Positions 18,432-25,473 of a DNA stretch of 64,000 bases are shown here, piece after piece. The stretch is taken from sequence record PZ049694.1; one strand, 5' to 3'. Source of the DNA: a phage. The notes under the pieces were generated by a model that was not told where the DNA came from, made no database searches, and saw nothing but the letters and a program-made list of their open reading frames with translations. The first letter of the stretch is position 1. Each line of letters starts with the position of its first letter. The position numbers and the translations under genes are program-made.

Positions 18432-18920
18432 TCATATATACGCTTTCCAAGTTCCTGTTTTAAATGTTGAGATTACGCGTTTAGCGCGATTAGGTGTCTG
18501 ACGATACCATTTAGATTGAGCTAGATTTACTGCCGCTTCATCCCAACGTTTCTGTTGAAGCATACGAAGAGAATTAGTAAAACCAGCGACGCCTGCTACG
18601 CCCATTTGGAAGACCATATTGACCAATGCACATCTACGAACCGCATCTAAAGAATCATATACCGGTTTAAGTTTAGCATTACCCAAGATTCCGCGAACGG
18701 CTTTATCAACGTCTTCATTAAATAGCTTTTCAGCCTCATCAAGGGTAATTGTACCGTTGCATTTACGTCCGATCATTCTGTCAAGTTCAGCTTTAGCTAC
18801 GGCTAAAGACGGGTTCTTTGTTACTAAATGACCTATGCCAATCGTCCAAAAGCCTTCAGTGTCTTTGTATAAAGTCAGTCTAAGACCTTCGTCATTACGA
18901 AGCATTTCAAATATATTCAT
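18432..18920 (-). CDS. e: endolysin (T4 lysozyme e)
   Basis: [27 protein letters not shown] with catalytic E11/D20/T26 positions conserved; matches recalled T4 e; GGGAGG Shine-Dalgarno can pair with an upstream CCTCC arm. Confidence 0.92.
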
Positions 18921-18954
18921 AATACCTCCCACGTTTATAGGAGGTATTTATTAC

Positions 18955-19413
18955 TTATAGGAGGGTAGTGAGCACCTTATATAATGATTTGCCCATTACA
19001 TATTCCCATTGAGAAGGTTTAATTAAAGCGAATGCATCAAATTCAGGAATCTGACGTCCGTCTGGGAATGTATGATAGGAATTACAAACACTGTTTCTGA
19101 ATTGCTCGTGCTCTACAGGGATGGTATATAGGAACAGATGAATATTCTTATTGTCTGAGTAATGATGTTCACCTAGGTCTTTCAGGAAGGCAGGGTCATA
19201 TTGTGTAAACCCAGTTTCTTCTTCGCATTCACGAATAGCGGCTTCAATAGGAGATTCGCCAGGCTCGACACGTCCTTTAGGAATATCCCACCGATGAGCT
19301 AAAGAACCTTTAGGACGAGAACCAGTTACACGCCCCATGAATAATTCTTTATCTTCGGTAAGGAAAATAATACCGGCTGATAGTTCTTTCACTTTATTTT
19401 TCTTACTCATCAT
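18955..19413 (-). CDS. nudE: Nudix hydrolase
   Basis: Nudix box GRVEPGESPIEAAIRECEEETGF; immediately upstream of e as in T4. Confidence 0.8.
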   Translation of the reverse strand: MMSKKNKVKELSAGIIFLTEDKELFMGRVTGSRPKGSLAHRWDIPKGRVEPGESPIEAAIRECEEETGFTQYDPAFLKDLGEHHYSDNKNIHLFLYTIPVEHEQFRNSVCNSYHTFPDGRQIPEFDAFALIKPSQWEYVMGKSLYKVLTTLL

Positions 19414-19654
19414 CTCGGTCCCATGATTTGACCATTAATTCGGACATAAATTCTTCAATGCGCGTTTCTTTAGATGGACTTTCACTATTAGAGACCGCAA
19501 GTTTGTAATCTGCAATAGGACAGAACATATCAAGGTCCATATTAAGGTCGTCTTTGATTTTTTCTTCTGACACATCTTTATCGTATGTATACAGATAACT
19601 ATCACACGATTCTGATTTAATGTAAATTGCTATACTCATCTCAAATTCCTGCAT
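19403..19654 (-). CDS. hypothetical acidic protein, 83 aa
   Basis: ORF overlapping both neighbours by a few codons. Confidence 0.45.
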   Translation of the reverse strand: MQEFEMSIAIYIKSESCDSYLYTYDKDVSEEKIKDDLNMDLDMFCPIADYKLAVSNSESPSKETRIEEFMSELMVKSWDRDDE

Positions 19655-20127
19655 TCGGTAATAAAACGTTCAACTTCATTATTCTTGGCTTTTATCTTGT
19701 CTTTATGTTCTTGTAAACTACTTTTAATAAGATTAATAATGATGCCTACAGTACCTCCACCAATTATACCGCCAATTATACTTACGATAGTAGATGCTAA
19801 TAAGATAGCGATAATATCTAGTACAGCAAAGGCACTTACTTTAGTACTAAAAAACCATACCGACGGTACAAATATAATCCATCCTGTTATCCATTGGCAC
19901 TTATTGAAAAACTTTTCAAGCTCAGCTTGAGTTGTTCGTATTACTTCATCGATAGGTTGATATCCATTAATGTATCTATTCACGATAATACCTGCTGGCT
20001 GGTCGATTTTAAATTCTTGGCAAATACGTTTCACTAAGTAGGATGGACATCCTGTCCAATCTACTGAATAGTATGAAATACCTTCGTTGCCATCGTCTAT
20101 ATTAGACCAATATGTTTTGTTAATCAT
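19636..20127 (-). CDS. membrane protein with C-terminal ERFITECR tail motif, 163 aa
   Basis: soluble N-domain, two hydrophobic helices, C-terminus ...NNEVERFITECRNLR; ATGA-coupled to upstream gene. Confidence 0.6.
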   Translation of the reverse strand: MINKTYWSNIDDGNEGISYYSVDWTGCPSYLVKRICQEFKIDQPAGIIVNRYINGYQPIDEVIRTTQAELEKFFNKCQWITGWIIFVPSVWFFSTKVSAFAVLDIIAILLASTIVSIIGGIIGGGTVGIIINLIKSSLQEHKDKIKAKNNEVERFITECRNLR

Positions 20128-20813
20128 TACCAGCCTTCCATAGGGAATTCCAGATAAACTTGAGCGTTGACACGAATTTCATTGGTAATCTTTTTAACTC
20201 GGTCTGTATTACGAGATACACGTCCGAACCAACGCCATCCATTACTAATTGCACGAGAACCAGTGTGCCATGTTTGCCAATCAAACTGAAGAAGAGTACG
20301 GTCCGGAGCTTCCCATTTCTCTAGTTCGCCTTTTTCGATTTTTTCGAGGACTTCTTTGTGCCACTGGCGATAGATAAGTTCGCCATCAGGAATCTGACTG
20401 AACTCCGCAGTTCCTGTTGCAAAATGAGTAGGACACACATCAGCATTAACAAGACCAAGAATATGTTCAGAATGGTAACGAGGGTTGTCATAATCAGGTT
20501 GTCCTGCAGTAATAAAATGTTGTCCTGTTGGAATATCTGGGCGTGGTACGTCATCATGGTGATATCCAGGAATAGCAGGATACCAACCAGGCATCAGCAT
20601 GTGGACTCGTGAATCAAATACTACATCCGAGACTTTCCAATCATCAGGAAGATTTTGGATAAAGCTACGAGTAATCGGGCCGCCATTATCAAAAGCAAAA
20701 TTCAAATCGCAGTTAAAGAACATAGGCTCGTTTTTAATCTGGTCGTTTTTAATCGCATGAGCAAAACCACCTACTGCACGAGCTTGACTATTAAACACTT
20801 TAGAACTATTCAT
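20127..20813 (-). CDS. possible 2OG-Fe(II) oxygenase-fold protein, 228 aa
   Basis: HxD candidate (GYHHDD) then distal His (WHTGSR) and RxS (GRVSR) at plausible spacing; assignment tentative. Confidence 0.35.
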   Translation of the reverse strand: MNSSKVFNSQARAVGGFAHAIKNDQIKNEPMFFNCDLNFAFDNGGPITRSFIQNLPDDWKVSDVVFDSRVHMLMPGWYPAIPGYHHDDVPRPDIPTGQHFITAGQPDYDNPRYHSEHILGLVNADVCPTHFATGTAEFSQIPDGELIYRQWHKEVLEKIEKGELEKWEAPDRTLLQFDWQTWHTGSRAISNGWRWFGRVSRNTDRVKKITNEIRVNAQVYLEFPMEGW

Positions 20814-20814
20814 A

Positions 20815-21120
20815 TTATTTTCCTCGACATTCTTTAATGAAATTTTCTAGATTGGTAGATTCAATAGCTTTTTTACGAGCTTCTGCGTGTTCTTCTTCGG
20901 ACAATTTACGTTTATAATTGACCCAGACATTATGGTCGAAACCAGTCGTGGCATATAATAACAATGCTCCAACGAATAGCAAAAACGGCGATAAGAATAC
21001 AAAACCAGGAACACCATCCATATCGTAAGCCTTTTGTAATACTGCAACAGAAAGAGCTACGTAAAAAGGTGATGCAAGTATTGTTAAAAGACCAATTCGG
21101 TTGGTTTCTGTTAATTTCAT
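20815..21120 (-). CDS. membrane protein with C-terminal ENFIKECR tail motif, 101 aa
   Basis: two hydrophobic helices; C-terminus ...NLENFIKECRGK. Confidence 0.6.
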   Translation of the reverse strand: MKLTETNRIGLLTILASPFYVALSVAVLQKAYDMDGVPGFVFLSPFLLFVGALLLYATTGFDHNVWVNYKRKLSEEEHAEARKKAIESTNLENFIKECRGK

Positions 21121-21176
21121 AATATTCTCCTCAAGTTGATAGGACTACTATAACATAGCCCTATCAGTTTGTACAC

Positions 21177-21395
21177 TTATTTTGACATTTCTTCGATGTC
21201 ACGACGATACCCATCACGAACTTCACGAAGAGCTTCAAGGCCACACATAGGCTCGATACCAGTAATGTGAACTTGATTAATCTGATACTCTACATCTTCT
21301 AACTGAGCGAAAACATAACGACGTTCTGCTGCACAACCAGGTTTAGCTTTACCGAAACGTTTATTCAAAGTAGTCATTTTTATATCTCCATTCAC
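21177..21395 (-). CDS. hypothetical protein, 72 aa
   Basis: ORF flanked by PeSL-like cassettes. Confidence 0.45.
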   Translation of the reverse strand: MNGDIKMTTLNKRFGKAKPGCAAERRYVFAQLEDVEYQINQVHITGIEPMCGLEALREVRDGYRRDIEEMSK

Positions 21396-21457
21396 TCATT
21401 TGTTTTGATAGGTCTATAGTATCAACAACTACAGACCTTGTAAACTGTTTTGTGAAA

Positions 21458-22414
21458 TTATTTGAAAGGTTTTACCATATGGAAATTTTGTTTGAAACGT
21501 TTTACGTAATCGTCGTGTCCTAAGCTTTGGTACATACTTACTACTTTGCTATAATTTTCCCAAGCGAACTCACGGAACCATCCTGATGTGATTGATGTAC
21601 AGACCTTTTCCAATGCCATCATGAAACTGGCTTCAGGGTTAATTTTAAAGTCATTAGGAATCTGAGAACGTTCTAACGCTAGTACACATGATTCTTCATA
21701 TACACCGGCCAATTTGACAATTTCTGGTAACGATTCGAACTTCTCGCGTGAGGTCATGACTTCAGAACCGTCTTTCATATAAAATGTATAAGCCGGACGG
21801 TCTGTTAGTGCAATGGCTTCATGAATAGTATCATGGTCATACGTATAGATGTCATCTTTAAAGAACGCACTTTTAGAAGTGTCAAGAACTGGGTGAGCAT
21901 AGTTCAAGGTTTCTTTCTGGCGTTTCAGCATAATTTCAGTAAGTTCATCGTTCAGTGTAACACCTTTACCACGAAGATACTGAATATGGTTCATAGTCTT
22001 TAAAAAGAATGGATTATTTTTCTTGAAACGATGAGACATCTTAATTGCAAGACATATCTCAGGAGTTGCCCAGTAAAACCCGTTCAAACGGTCTTTAGTC
22101 AAATTTTTCTTGGCGTATTTTAAAAGGTCATAAGAAGACGTGAAATCTTCAGGAGTGAGTTCACCTACTAATTCACGGACATTAGTGATTGCCGGAACAA
22201 TATATGCTTCAAAATGAGTTTCGCGTCCATTATGGAAGCATTTGAAAACTTGGACATCAGGGTTATCTTGGTGAACATATACACCCATCATTTGATTTTT
22301 GAATGCGTTCCAAGAACCTTGGTCCGCAATAAAGTCCCAATCGCTATTTTTGATAGCGCTAGAATCAATAAGACCGTGATAGTGAAGTGCACGAGAACCA
22401 ATAACTAACATCAT
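21458..22414 (-). CDS. hypothetical protein, possible divergent nucleotidyltransferase fold, 318 aa
   Basis: N-terminus MMLVIGSRALHYHG...SDWDF loosely parallels GS...SDVDF of ORF 8644..9657; GAGGA Shine-Dalgarno. Confidence 0.45.
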   Translation of the reverse strand: MMLVIGSRALHYHGLIDSSAIKNSDWDFIADQGSWNAFKNQMMGVYVHQDNPDVQVFKCFHNGRETHFEAYIVPAITNVRELVGELTPEDFTSSYDLLKYAKKNLTKDRLNGFYWATPEICLAIKMSHRFKKNNPFFLKTMNHIQYLRGKGVTLNDELTEIMLKRQKETLNYAHPVLDTSKSAFFKDDIYTYDHDTIHEAIALTDRPAYTFYMKDGSEVMTSREKFESLPEIVKLAGVYEESCVLALERSQIPNDFKINPEASFMMALEKVCTSITSGWFREFAWENYSKVVSMYQSLGHDDYVKRFKQNFHMVKPFK

Positions 22415-22438
22415 AATATTTTCCTCGGATTAATTAAC

Positions 22439-22690
22439 TTAAATTTCACGACATGCGATATTATATTCATCCCAGAGGTCATCGTGTGAAGCCTCTACCA
22501 ATGGAACGATTGTACCATTTATGTCTTCATTATAAGGGCAAATTGTACAGTGCGCATCTTCGAATCGGATACCTTTGTGTTCAGATTTTTTATAACGCAT
22601 ATCGAATATCTTTGCAAATTTTTCACGAGTAATGGTTTTACCAACCACTTTGGTTCCGATACTTTCGTAATAAATCATTGTGGACTCCAT
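22439..22690 (-). CDS. hypothetical Cys-containing protein, 83 aa
   Basis: ORF preceded by a PeSL-like cassette. Confidence 0.5.
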   Translation of the reverse strand: MESTMIYYESIGTKVVGKTITREKFAKIFDMRYKKSEHKGIRFEDAHCTICPYNEDINGTIVPLVEASHDDLWDEYNIACREI

Positions 22691-22740
22691 TTAATTTGAT
22701 AGGACTACTATAACATAGCCCTATCTTGTTGTAAACTGTT

Positions 22741-22938
22741 TTAGCAAGAATAACTAGACGATACCCAGCCTTGAACAGTGATACTATTGTGGGATAATGA
22801 GATCGCGTCCTGGAGATTCAGACCTGCGTTATCTTCAATCCATAACGTAACTTCTTCGCGTTCTTCTGTTGCAATTTGGAACAGGTTTTCCAGAGCAGCT
22901 ACTGCCGTACGTACAGCACAATCTAATTCACGAGACAT
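22741..22938 (-). CDS. small protein, paralog 3 of tandem family ending ...GWVSSSYSC
   Basis: 65 aa; shares N-terminal MS(K/R) and invariant C-terminal GW[VI][SA]SSxxC with 22948..23220 and 23230..23535. Confidence 0.55.
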   Translation of the reverse strand: MSRELDCAVRTAVAALENLFQIATEEREEVTLWIEDNAGLNLQDAISLSHNSITVQGWVSSSYSC

Positions 22939-22947
22939 ATGGTTTCC

Positions 22948-23220
22948 TTAGCAAGTGTGAGAAGATGCGATCCAACCACCAGTTTCGAGGCTTAGGTTGT
23001 AGTCGTATTGGTAAACGTCGGCCCATTCAGCATAGCCGTTTTTTGTACAACGTTCAAGGTCGGCTTTAAGCTGTCCGGGTGAATGATATGTTCCACCCAT
23101 ACCATAAGCTGGATACAAGTCGAATGTTGTGTTTTGTTTATCAGCAATTTCTTTGGCAGCCTCAATAGCTGCATAGATTTTTGCTACAGCTTCGGCCAGT
23201 TCGGTTTGTTCTTTAGACAT
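22948..23220 (-). CDS. small protein, paralog 2 of tandem family ending ...GWIASSHTC
   Basis: 90 aa; tandem with 9-nt spacers; AGGA Shine-Dalgarno. Confidence 0.55.
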   Translation of the reverse strand: MSKEQTELAEAVAKIYAAIEAAKEIADKQNTTFDLYPAYGMGGTYHSPGQLKADLERCTKNGYAEWADVYQYDYNLSLETGGWIASSHTC

Positions 23221-23229
23221 AATGATTCC

Positions 23230-23535
23230 TTAGCACATCGCAGAAGACGAAACCCAAGCACCTTCAGTAATAACGTAACCATTACCTTCACGCTTAACAT
23301 CGCCACCATTATTTTCAATTTCATCTTTCATCCACTGGGATACGATTTCACCCTTAGGATAATAAGTACGACCGCTACCATAATCACCTACAGAAAATGA
23401 TACGGCATATTGGTCCGCGATCTTTGTTGCTTCTTCTTCGATACGTTCAGCTTGATTCAGAAGTTTATAAATTGCATCTGAAGCGGATTTGGCATCATTA
23501 AACTCTGGTACTTTAATTTCAATAATCTTACTCAT
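23230..23535 (-). CDS. small protein, paralog 1 of tandem family ending ...AWVSSSAMC
   Basis: 101 aa; ATGA-coupled to upstream membrane-protein gene. Confidence 0.55.
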   Translation of the reverse strand: MSKIIEIKVPEFNDAKSASDAIYKLLNQAERIEEEATKIADQYAVSFSVGDYGSGRTYYPKGEIVSQWMKDEIENNGGDVKREGNGYVITEGAWVSSSAMC

Positions 23536-23891
23536 TTTCTACATTCCTTAATAAAGTTTTCGATTGTTTCATTTTCACGTCTAGCTAGGAGTTCATTATA
23601 ACTAATCATTTGAGAAGCGTAAACCTTTTTATTTTTCTTGTTATGGTTTATAAAATCGTAGTAAAAATAGACTACAGTACAAAATGATGCGATGGATGCA
23701 AAGGCTTGGGTATACCGTAAGTCCCGCCATTGGTCTATGAATCCGCCAGTGTTACCTATAAATCCTAATACAACTCCGTCAATAAGAAATCCAACTAATC
23801 CAAAGGCAAATCCCATGCCAATACTCATAATAAAAATTAGAATGTTCTCACCAAGAGAAGGCCATACGGTTAAGAGTTGAGGCTTTTGCAT
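23532..23891 (-). CDS. membrane protein with C-terminal ENFIKECR tail motif, 119 aa
   Basis: hydrophobic helices then ...ETIENFIKECRK. Confidence 0.55.
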   Translation of the reverse strand: MQKPQLLTVWPSLGENILIFIMSIGMGFAFGLVGFLIDGVVLGFIGNTGGFIDQWRDLRYTQAFASIASFCTVVYFYYDFINHNKKNKKVYASQMISYNELLARRENETIENFIKECRK

Positions 23892-24295
23892 CTTATTTCC
23901 TTAACGAATTCCATAGCTTCTTCATATTCATACTTTTTAACAGCTTCATCATACTGAGCTTGGGCTTTTGCGCACTGAACTTTCCACTCACGAACTCGGG
24001 CTCTGTGATGACGGCCTTGGTACCAATATCCCACCCAGTTAATAGGCATTAATAAAAATGGTACAATAAACGACCCGGCTATAATAAGTAAAAACACTGC
24101 ATCAGACGATATAACTTTATTGGAATCTAAAATAGCTCCTATAATCATAAAGATTAAAAATGCTAAAGCTAAAATAGGACCAAACAACACTTCATTAGGA
24201 ATTAATTTACGTTTGTATTCGTATGCCCAGGGCTTAATTGGCATGTACAGGGTTGGCTTTGACATATTCTCTACATTCCATAATAAATTGCTCAA
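23870..24295 (-). CDS. membrane protein with related C-terminal motif (EFVKEIRCK), 141 aa
   Basis: two hydrophobic helices; start may be an internal ATG. Confidence 0.5.
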   Translation of the reverse strand: MSNLLWNVENMSKPTLYMPIKPWAYEYKRKLIPNEVLFGPILALAFLIFMIIGAILDSNKVISSDAVFLLIIAGSFIVPFLLMPINWVGYWYQGRHHRARVREWKVQCAKAQAQYDEAVKKYEYEEAMEFVKEIRCKSLNS

Positions 24296-24851
24296 GGATT
24301 AAATTGTTAGTGAAATTAGGACTAACAACCATGGTTTCATAAAGCGCATCAATAGCACTTAAAGCATCAACTCTCTTAAGCAAAGGCTTGCCTTCATACA
24401 TAGTTTCAGAATCGACGATTAAAGTGAAGTAGTATTTTTTATTATTGACCAGAACTTCTGTATCAATATAAAACATGTTAGACCTTAAAAGCTTGTCTCT
24501 AAAGCCTACGTAATCATCTGAACGTTCACTGATATATTCCCATTCAGTGTTTAAACAACAAACAGACCACGTAGGAGCAACGAAATCAGTGAATCTAATA
24601 TCATGATCTGCAACTAATTTAGCAATAGCTCCGATATCATGAATCATAATACCTGGGGCTAATAAAGATTTTCGGCGATTTGCATATTCAGTTGTCTCAT
24701 AAGAAGCTGACCAGTACCATTTACGTCCAGTTGCAACATATCGTAATGAATCAACTAAAGACGTAGGTGGATTTACCTTATTTCGGAACTCTTCGAACAT
24801 TGAGTCAATATCATTATTTTGGTTTCGCATGTTAACTCCTTTATTATCCAA
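24234..24851 (-). CDS. hypothetical soluble protein carrying the same tail motif near its C-terminus (EQFIMECREYV), 205 aa
   Basis: ORF; motif lies 10 aa from the end. Confidence 0.5.
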   Translation of the reverse strand: MDNKGVNMRNQNNDIDSMFEEFRNKVNPPTSLVDSLRYVATGRKWYWSASYETTEYANRRKSLLAPGIMIHDIGAIAKLVADHDIRFTDFVAPTWSVCCLNTEWEYISERSDDYVGFRDKLLRSNMFYIDTEVLVNNKKYYFTLIVDSETMYEGKPLLKRVDALSAIDALYETMVVSPNFTNNLILEQFIMECREYVKANPVHAN

Positions 24852-24879: not shown

Positions 24880-25473
24880 TTATTTCAAAGAGTTAATATA
24901 TTCTTGTACATCGGCAGAAGTGGTTTCGACACCGGTTGGAGTGCCATTGAACGTTTCAACACGAGTCAGAGTGTCTTCGATATCAACCTTAGTCAGTGCA
25001 GCGATTTCAATTACATCATCAGCCGTAGAGATACCAAGGGCATTAGCTGCTCGAGTTTCACGAATGTATTCGAGTTTGATTGCCAGGTTCTGACGAGCAT
25101 CGTCAAGTTCAACCACCTTACGAGCAATTTCAATTCGCATAGCGGCATACCCGTCAGCTTTTGTATTAAGTTGTTCGGCAGTTCGACGATACAGAAGACC
25201 AAGCTTGGCATGCATGGTAACATCTTGTCCTTCAGCCAGGAGCTTACGAATTTCACGTTCCTTAGAAGCGGCTTGCTTATTCTTTTCAATAACAAGTTCG
25301 CGAATACGTTTTTCTTCATTAATAGATTTAACAGAAGCCGTTTTTAGTTCTTTGATTTGGGTAATCAACTTATCTGCAGCTGCGTTATACTGTTCTTCGA
25401 CAGTCAGATTTTTAGCCATAGCAGTACCCAGTTTAGTGCGGATGAATTCAACAAGTTTCTTCAGTGTGTTCAT
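24880..25473 (-). CDS. coiled-coil protein, 197 aa (start trimmed to ATG MNTLKKL)
   Basis: track ORF starts at TTG; ATG has a GAAAGG Shine-Dalgarno; upstream TTTACA, 17 nt, TATAAT promoter with inverted repeat. Confidence 0.55.

Follow-up and report, generated by a model that had tools for sequence, protein, structure and literature searches.

Why should several proteins of one phage gene block, most of them membrane proteins and at least one soluble, carry the same short peptide at their ends? The question is raised by a 64,000-nucleotide stretch of phage DNA (record PZ049694.1), referred to as a whole as the window, in which five open reading frames (ORFs) had been predicted from the letters alone to share a C-terminal motif, E-x-F-I-x-E-C-R. 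Here, we characterized this motif, which we term the tail, together with the proteins that carry it and its occurrence among related phages. The region from 19.4 to 25.5 kb is 96-97% identical to phages of Mosigvirus (RB69-like), e.g., 308Ecol101PP, ST0, APCEc01, and JS09, which identifies the window, at the level of sequence, as a T4-type phage of this group. Gene names were given by comparison with T4 (NC_000866). The tail genes and the neighbors of interest are on the minus strand throughout, and the tail-bearing block is bounded on one side by the lysozyme gene e (18432..18932) and nudE (e.1; 18955..19413), the latter forming its downstream boundary, and on the other side by a homolog of e.6.

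The tail motif and its conservation

All five ORFs and their tails were confirmed on the minus strand. The strict pattern E-x-F-[IV]-x-E-[CI]-R has four copies in the six frames of the 64 kb, every one of them C-terminal, against an expectation of 0.003 per trial in 300 residue shuffles of the same ORFs (maximum 1). A chance origin is excluded. With a position-specific scoring matrix (PSSM) built from tails of several genera, the five window tails reached 27-31 bits, whereas no other site in the window exceeded 9.1. The first carrier, counted from nudE, is the long e.2 homolog (19636..20127; 163 amino acids, PHROG 2203), whose N-terminus aligns with T4 e.2 and which ends ...VERFITECRNLR; its tail codons, V-E-R-F-I-T-E-C-R, occupy 19648..19674. 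It is followed by a 101-amino-acid protein with two predicted transmembrane (TM) segments (20815..21120; PHROG 9798), which ends ...LENFIKECRGK (tail codons L-E-N-F-I-K-E-C-R, 20824..20850) and has a Mosigvirus-specific body with no T4 counterpart. The e.3 homolog, a membrane protein of 119 amino acids (23532..23891) with 35% identity to T4 e.3, ends ...IENFIKECRK (tail codons I-E-N-F-I-K-E-C-R, 23538..23564). The e.4 homolog (23870..24265; 131 amino acids from its ATG, two predicted TM segments) ends ...AMEFVKEIRCKSLNS and bears the fifth, looser copy, MEFVKEIRCK, in which Ile replaces Cys (degenerate tail codons A-M-E-F-V-K-E-I-R, 23891..23917). Lastly, the e.5 homolog (24234..24830; 198 amino acids) is a soluble alpha/beta protein with the tail inside its last helix (...LEQFIMECREYVKANPVHAN; tail codons L-E-Q-F-I-M-E-C-R, 24270..24296), and here the motif is followed by 11 further residues that overlap the start of e.4 (ATG inside TAT GTC). 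The original prediction of a shared terminal E-x-F-I-x-E-C-R was therefore right in that all five ORFs possess the motif, and too strict in that the e.5 copy is not terminal and the e.4 copy is degenerate. Judged by annotated relatives, the TTG starts assumed for e.5 (24851) and e.4 (24295) were over-extended.

Consensus counts taken over 140 tails give the core as PHI(-3)-[E/N](-2)-x-F-[IV]-x-x-C-[RK]-basic, where PHI is hydrophobic and F is position 0. Position -3 is L in 52 tails, I in 22, F in 20, A in 11, and V in 9, and position -2 is E (60) or N (27). Position 0 is F in 133 tails and W in 4, followed at +1 by I (104), V (22), or L (10). K is frequent at +2 and E at +3; the E before C that the strict pattern requires is not a core position in other genera. 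Position +4 is C (113), I (14), V (9), or S (4), position +5 is R (122) or K (18), and from +6 onward the residues are for the most part basic or small. The motif's F is thus retained in 95% of tails, R or K in 100%, and C in 81%, and the replacements of F by W and of C by I or V keep the residue's character. Between 0 and 15 residues follow position +5, and these are not conserved. The -3/0/+1/+4 spacing would place L, F, I, and C on one face of an alpha-helix.

Codon statistics from 117 distinct nucleotide versions of the tail demonstrate that it is under purifying selection at the amino-acid level. Among differing codon pairs, the synonymous share was 0.85 at F, 0.77 at R, 0.51 at C, and 0.44 at I, compared with 0.03-0.13 in flanking codons, and the tail Arg is encoded by AGA, AGG, CGT, CGA, and CGC, i.e., by both the AGR and the CGN families. 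The three codon strings quoted in support of the original prediction were correct, and its claim of conservation at the protein level, and not by recent DNA duplication, is borne out by the dominance of synonymous differences at conserved residues and by the five Arg codons. For the same reasons, the DNA-level conservation of a nucleotide repeat, a duplicated block, or a cassette of the PeSL type is lacking. PeSL promoter/stem-loop cassettes take part in modular shuffling in the hyperplastic regions of T4-type phages (PMC2839356, PMC4122927). Like the tail, they are short, conserved, repeated elements at gene boundaries in such regions; unlike the tail, which is coding and conserved in its amino acids with free synonymous change, they are non-coding and conserved in their nucleotides.

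By sequence comparison, the tail is conserved well beyond this genome, in about 10 named genera and 36 viral contigs, as the search in relatives called for by the original prediction established. We compared the e.6-to-e interval in ten further phages (VR26, Yersinia P8, QL01, Marfa, PEi20, JD18, PG7, Aeromonas avDM5, Serratia WSPA, and a Slopekvirus) and found the tail in eight, often relaxed to [FW]-[IV]-x-x-C-R-basic; the interval of Serratia WSPA and that of the Slopekvirus had none. Marfa has six copies, PG7 and PEi20 five each, and the Aeromonas phage one, which sits on the protein in the e.5 position. Additionally, 52 loci with 10-kb flanks were drawn from IMG/VR, anchored on NudE instead of on a tail carrier, and a 12-column hidden Markov model (HMM) of the tail was compared with all of their 4,374 six-frame ORFs of at least 40 amino acids at a cut-off of 8 bits. 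All 122 matches at or above the cut-off lay within 20 residues of a C-terminus, and 121 were on the coding strand of the block. Since location is not encoded in the HMM, these matches are an independent confirmation of the tail's C-terminal nature. The 36 T-even-like loci possess two to six tails each, all between nudE and e.6, and the HMM found no tail in 15 of 16 distant loci and one borderline match in the other (L067). A word-indexed homolog search with e.3 returned only three near-identical proteins.

The motif is also present in T4 itself and is confined there to one block. T4 carries the tail on e.3 (...MKEFVIDCRKIK), e.4 (...IMKFVKESRCKSQS), and e.5 (...LEKFVKECREYVKAITIPSK), and a fourth copy is the unannotated remnant of a disrupted e.2, just upstream of nudE (...LNNFITECRKLK). 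Over the whole 168,903-bp T4 genome, the PSSM returned four sites of 21-29.5 bits and a next best of 11.5. Full-text literature searches on the gene names e.3 to e.6 produced only unrelated papers and no description of the tail, in keeping with the original impression that it was undescribed. None of the five tail proteins had a match in scans of the Pfam or NCBIfam libraries; homologs of e.5 have a precomputed Pfam accession, PF26876.

Heterogeneous carriers with a common ending

Four of the five window carriers are predicted to have two TM segments (e.3 less clearly so), and e.5 has none. Carriers overall include proteins with no TM segment and proteins with one to three, and soluble and membrane carriers co-occur in most genomes. 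The initial description of a tag on several small membrane proteins is therefore true of most carriers but incomplete, since soluble proteins bear it too. Three clearly different architectures can be distinguished, namely soluble e.5-like proteins of 150-270 amino acids, small soluble proteins of about 95-160 amino acids, and proteins with one to three TM segments. Carriers of the e.2 type have an additional N-terminal soluble domain; the predicted layout of the long e.2 homolog in the window is a soluble N-terminal domain, two TM segments, a charged helix, and the tail. In membrane carriers, a charged helix of 30-45 residues lies between the last TM segment and the tail. Lys and Arg cluster in the two terminal segments of these proteins, and their loops are short, a pattern from which both termini, and with them the tails, are predicted to lie in the cytoplasm (N-in, C-in). 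In an AlphaFold2 (AF2) model of e.5 of moderate confidence (predicted local distance difference test score, 65), the tail lies in the terminal helix, residues 177-192.

When the tails were removed and the bodies compared by hhalign, only e.3 and e.4 matched (59% probability over 57 columns), and the other body pairs of the window were at noise level. At full length, e.3 and e.4 align with 92.6% probability and have an N-terminal M-x-K-P-x-L in common, so that they look like distant paralogs. With tails kept, most cross-family hhalign alignments span just 8-18 columns of tail. These results uphold the view that the bodies are unrelated or only loosely related. The 140 tail bearers form 35 body clusters by BLAST, which hhalign merges only to 32-34; hhalign is underpowered on thin alignments, and we do not claim 35 independent origins. 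Homology outside the motif, as expected of a single paralogous family, was thus found for e.3 and e.4, and the other pairs are below detection in comparisons that involve thin alignments and fast-diverging TM proteins. Taken together, the tail is a modular, C-terminal helix motif of predicted cytoplasmic location that is under residue-specific selection on heterogeneous carriers.

A proposed docking handle and its alternatives

Considering the anatomy of the tail and its carriers, we assign a probability of roughly 45% to the tail being a common protein-docking handle for several early proteins of one phage; docking was one of the roles, next to sorting and degradation, that the original prediction had suggested. 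The PHI-[E/N]-x-F-[I/V]-x-x-C-[R/K]-basic module most likely forms about three turns of an amphipathic helix, in which the residues at -3, 0, +1, and +4 (L/I, F, I/V, and C) would make up one hydrophobic face beside the nearly invariant Arg. In enterobacterial T-even-like phages, it is found on many different bodies, which are encoded between nudE and e.6. In membrane carriers, one to three TM segments are followed by the charged helical stalk of 30-45 residues and then by a tail that is predicted to face the cytoplasm, and in soluble carriers such as e.5 the tail is part of the last helix. Membrane anchors and soluble proteins could then bind one shared candidate partner through a single helix face and the invariant Arg, and this docking would bring the carriers together on the cytoplasmic side of the inner membrane. 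Either a host or a phage protein might serve as the partner, or else the tails of the other carriers. Indeed, the residue-specific invariance of F, R/K, and C fits specific recognition better than generic lipid binding. As to origin, the tail is probably oldest in e.5, the sole carrier seen in the Aeromonas phage, and would have reached neighboring genes later, as gene 3′ ends were duplicated locally and fused, with e.3 and e.4 as one paralog pair from such local spread.

Short linear docking motifs that bind hub proteins are familiar from the FtsZ C-terminal peptide, the tip of the SSB C-terminus, and clamp-binding motifs. The tail is like them in having few invariant residues within a terminal peptide of otherwise unrelated proteins, and theirs is the mechanism proposed for it; unlike them in sequence, it matches none of the three. 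Another parallel is the phage-shock system of E. coli, in which the small membrane proteins PspB and PspC bind PspA by a cytoplasmic C-terminal helix. Membrane carriers of the tail are likewise small inner-membrane proteins with a cytoplasmic, amphipathic C-terminal helix (as predicted), encoded beside a long coiled-coil hairpin protein, here e.6. The e.6 homolog of the window (24880..25473; 197 amino acids) is a long alpha-helical hairpin encoded directly upstream of the tail block, and in most genomes e.6 is directly upstream of e.5; one tail-bearing locus has no e.6 within 10 kb. An AF2 model of e.6 has helices at 2-22, 25-80, and 86-145, i.e., an N-terminal helix and a long helical hairpin, an architecture compatible with that of BAR, ESCRT-III, PspA, and Vipp1 proteins. 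The single e.6 sequence had no sequence match in the PDB, its profile reached Vipp1 only at E = 3-5, one of 11 e.6 homologs matched PspA_IM30 (E = 4e-4), and hhalign found no similarity between e.6 and E. coli PspA. A PspA-like e.6 as the partner of the tail is accordingly speculation, the sequence and fold searches being non-specific.

A bolder reading is that the tail is an unrecognized, portable 10-residue C-terminal address tag that plugs two to six early proteins per genome into one conserved hub, be it a complex of the host or a protein of the phage itself (e.6, for instance). We regard this as tentative and rather doubtful. If true, new ORFan bodies could gain function merely by fusing to the tag, and the tag would correspond, at the C-terminus and in the early phase, to the capsid-targeting sequence discussed below.

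Several observations weigh against the docking handle. All carriers belong to one gene block, which is compatible with a diverged paralog family. BLAST and hhalign understate homology on thin alignments, so that the 35 clusters overstate diversity; by eye, the clusters in the e.5 position have Y-S-[IV]-Y-A-[YL]-N-D in common, and the small soluble carriers have W..W. In whole ortholog groups (e.4 and that of ...NFIQGIRG), Cys gives way to Ile, Val, or Ser, indicating that thiol chemistry is not essential, and the presence of Ile or Val in its place suggests that Cys serves mainly as a small hydrophobic residue. The tail of e.5 may simply pack on its own domain. Finally, there is no host look-alike to name, since a 36-column profile run against 1.84 billion protein representatives, a scale at which so short a motif cannot reach significance, matched nothing beyond close Mosigvirus homologs, apart from one TPR false positive.

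Part of this evidence would suit the carriers being strongly diverged tandem paralogs, with the tail as the best-kept remnant of an ancestral C-terminal helix that has an internal structural or homo-oligomerization role and no shared external partner. In favor of such a family are the confinement of every copy to one block, the collinear distant paralogy of e.3 and e.4, the layout of TM segments, charged helix, and tail shared by most membrane carriers, and the quick divergence of small membrane proteins. Nevertheless, we consider it unlikely, if worth keeping in mind. The ending of TM hairpins is also borne by soluble alpha/beta proteins (e.5, 150-270 amino acids) and by soluble proteins of about 95-160 amino acids, body-only profile comparisons are at noise except for e.3 and e.4, and selection is focused on four or five residues of one helix face and not on a domain.

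The tail could also be an amphipathic helix of the membrane surface, similar to those of MinD and FtsA, that takes soluble carriers to the inner membrane and lays the ends of membrane carriers onto the bilayer. The likeness would be a short, C-terminal, amphipathic helix in which aromatic, aliphatic, and basic residues are abundant, with a hydrophobic moment (0.38-0.69) in the range of the MinD (0.45) and FtsA (0.57) peptides; the joint presence of soluble and membrane carriers in most genomes agrees with it as well. However, MinD/FtsA helices vary widely and give membrane association to soluble proteins, whereas four of the five window carriers are already predicted integral membrane proteins, so that among carriers with one to three TM segments and without any, the soluble ones alone could use such a helix. 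A long charged stalk separates the last TM segment from the tail, the tail has a mean hydrophobicity below zero, and its positions -2 and +3 are often acidic. Near-invariant single residues, here F, Arg, and Cys, are not known to be a feature of membrane-targeting helices. Because most carriers are already embedded in the membrane and conservation is residue-specific, a membrane-surface role appears quite improbable.

We give similarly little credence to a degradation or turnover signal by which a host or phage protease would clear these early proteins together at a set time. An exposed, predicted cytoplasmic peptide at the C-terminus, common to the proteins of one early block, is laid out as C-terminal degrons typically are. 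The degrons of this kind known from E. coli, however, have nonpolar ends, e.g., ssrA ...LAA, which the tail does not resemble. In addition, signals of the ssrA or ClpX C-motif type are a defined sequence at the extreme C-terminus, whereas the tail is followed by 0-15 variable, non-conserved residues, which disfavors a degron.

Very little likelihood is left for the motif as a by-product of nucleotide constraints at gene junctions, whether these stem from the Shine-Dalgarno sequence (SD) and start of a coupled downstream gene, from a recombination cassette, or from a signal in the nascent peptide or for termination. The initiation signals of the downstream gene do extend into tail codons, and AAGGA or GAGGA (K-E/E-E codons) is often its SD. 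In the window, the tail of e.2 runs directly into an SD (AGGA in TGC AGG A) and then the ATGA at which the following gene starts, the tail of e.3 has AAGGA (K-E codons) 9 nt before the next ATGA start, and the degenerate tail of e.4 (AAG GAA ATA AGA TGC) holds both the SD and the ATG of e.3. Tail remnants in T4, upstream of nudE, and in phage 348Ecol098PP (see below) keep the initiation region of the next gene as well. Against this, synonymous variation dominates at F, R, and C, with Arg shifting between AGR and CGN. An SD-like 4-mer is present in the core codons of only 49/140 tails, the gap from tail to next start codon varies from -7 to +84 nt, and T4's many other tight junctions yield no tail-like peptide in the whole-genome PSSM search, all of which indicates that SD overlap is not the cause of the motif. 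Nor is there the fixed register to the stop or reinitiation site that a ribosome-arrest or termination-coupling nascent peptide requires, as the carrier's own stop follows after 0-15 codons and the next start at the variable distance given above. Codon statistics and variable spacing thus largely refute a cause at the level of the SD or nucleotides. Apart from causation, 23870..24296 is a segment of densely overlapped coding and initiation signals, where the tail of e.4 coincides with the SD and ATG of e.3 and the extension of e.5 with the start of e.4.

Scarcely credible, lastly, is a C-terminal version of the capsid-targeting sequence (CTS; MKTYQEFIxEA) and/or of the gp21 prohead-protease site (I-x-E), since the tail HMM gives CTS leaders 1.0-6.1 bits, which is noise, vs. 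9.9-18.8 for tails, and the PSSM gives them 3-6 bits; homology to the CTS was rejected on these scores. The CTS stands at the N-terminus and directs soluble proteins to the core of the prohead (PMC9958956), as described for the T4 internal proteins IPII and IPIII (Mullaney and Black, 1996, as summarized in PMC9958956). E-F-I-x-E, with a small and a basic residue after it, is present in both peptides, tails as well as leaders were caught in 12 loci by one loose regular expression, and internal-protein genes flank the block. Like the CTS, the tail is an end peptide of about 10 residues on variable, fast-evolving bodies in the same hyperplastic neighborhood. Unlike the CTS, which is borne by soluble proteins packaged in the head and is removed by gp21, it lies near the C-terminus in 122/122 matches, and its carriers are mostly membrane proteins of an early-strand block; packaging in the prohead is implausible for them because four of the five in the window are predicted integral membrane proteins. 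With regard to a consensus of the MKTYQEFIAE type, CTS-bearing internal proteins scored 1.0 bit and T4 gp61.1 6.1 bits with the tail HMM. Separately, we noted that gp61.1 of T4 (54 amino acids; 18966..19130) begins MKTFKEFIKED, close to the leader MKTYQEFIAE, yet is encoded far from the internal-protein loci. The CTS is nevertheless the nearest known concept, from which the tail differs in protein end, carriers, gene class, and sequence, and the analogy drawn in the original prediction holds at the level of concept, in that variable bodies share a conserved tag at one end, and fails as sequence similarity.

Roughly half of T4 genes have no known function, and the e.2-e.6 block is a typical ORFan stretch. 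With one tag shared by over 100 ORFs of about 36 genomes, many such genes come down to one question, that of what binds the tail. If a common hub for the proposed docking handle exists, hyperplastic regions could swap bodies freely yet stay linked to the same cellular target, and the tail, being small and portable, would offer a means of sending proteins to that target in the course of infection. Should it be only a family remnant, the ORFans are still grouped and several annotations are corrected. The finding overturns nothing, and makes an ORFan block one testable question.

Truncated copies, neighboring genes, and a second shared ending

In T4, e.2 is annotated as a protein of 102 amino acids (NC_000866, about 67472..67960 of locus L001). 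Its frame meets two stops and then runs on to ...NLNNFITECRKLK, where the end of the disrupted frame overlaps the start of nudE. The missing second TM segment of T4 e.2 is readable in another frame, which points to two compensating frame disruptions. Contigs of the T2/T6 type have an intact e.2 of 162 amino acids (9519..10007 in L030 and 4227..4715 in L033), and the T4 disruption may reflect either a genuine mutation or a sequencing error of long standing. In phage 348Ecol098PP (L003, 4991..5090), only the last 30 codons of e.3 are left after a deletion. They stand in frame right behind the stop codon of e.4 and still supply the following gene with its SD and ATGA start, a case of the 3′ end of a gene outliving its body. 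It is probably because of the overlap with the initiation region of the next gene that the tail remnants of T4 e.2 and 348Ecol098PP e.3 have outlived the lost bodies. We also observed a chimeric-looking ORF of 60 amino acids in a Logan assembly (P0018), in which fragments of e.3 run into the C-terminus of e.4 (...EAVKKYEYEEAMEFVKEIRCKSLN); either recombination or an assembly artifact may have produced it.

Two well-conserved proteins without assigned function are encoded among the tail genes of the window and are missing from the T4 e region. One (20127..20813) has 228 amino acids, belongs to PHROG 1843, and contains a G-Y-H-H-D-D motif; the other (21458..22414) has 318 amino acids and the Pfam domains DUF7277 and DUF7275.

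The same block has a second C-terminal ending, W-[VI]-[SA]-S-S-x-x-C-stop, on three tandem small soluble ORFs at 22741..23535 of the minus strand. Carriers of this ending belong to PHROG 899 and PHROG 4882, with function unassigned, and it is absent from T4. The three ORFs of the window (23230..23535, 22948..23220, and 22741..22938) end GAWVSSSAMC, GGWIASSHTC, and QGWVSSSYSC, respectively, and the ending is also found on two to five tandem ORFs in VR26, Marfa, PEi20, PG7, and WSPA.

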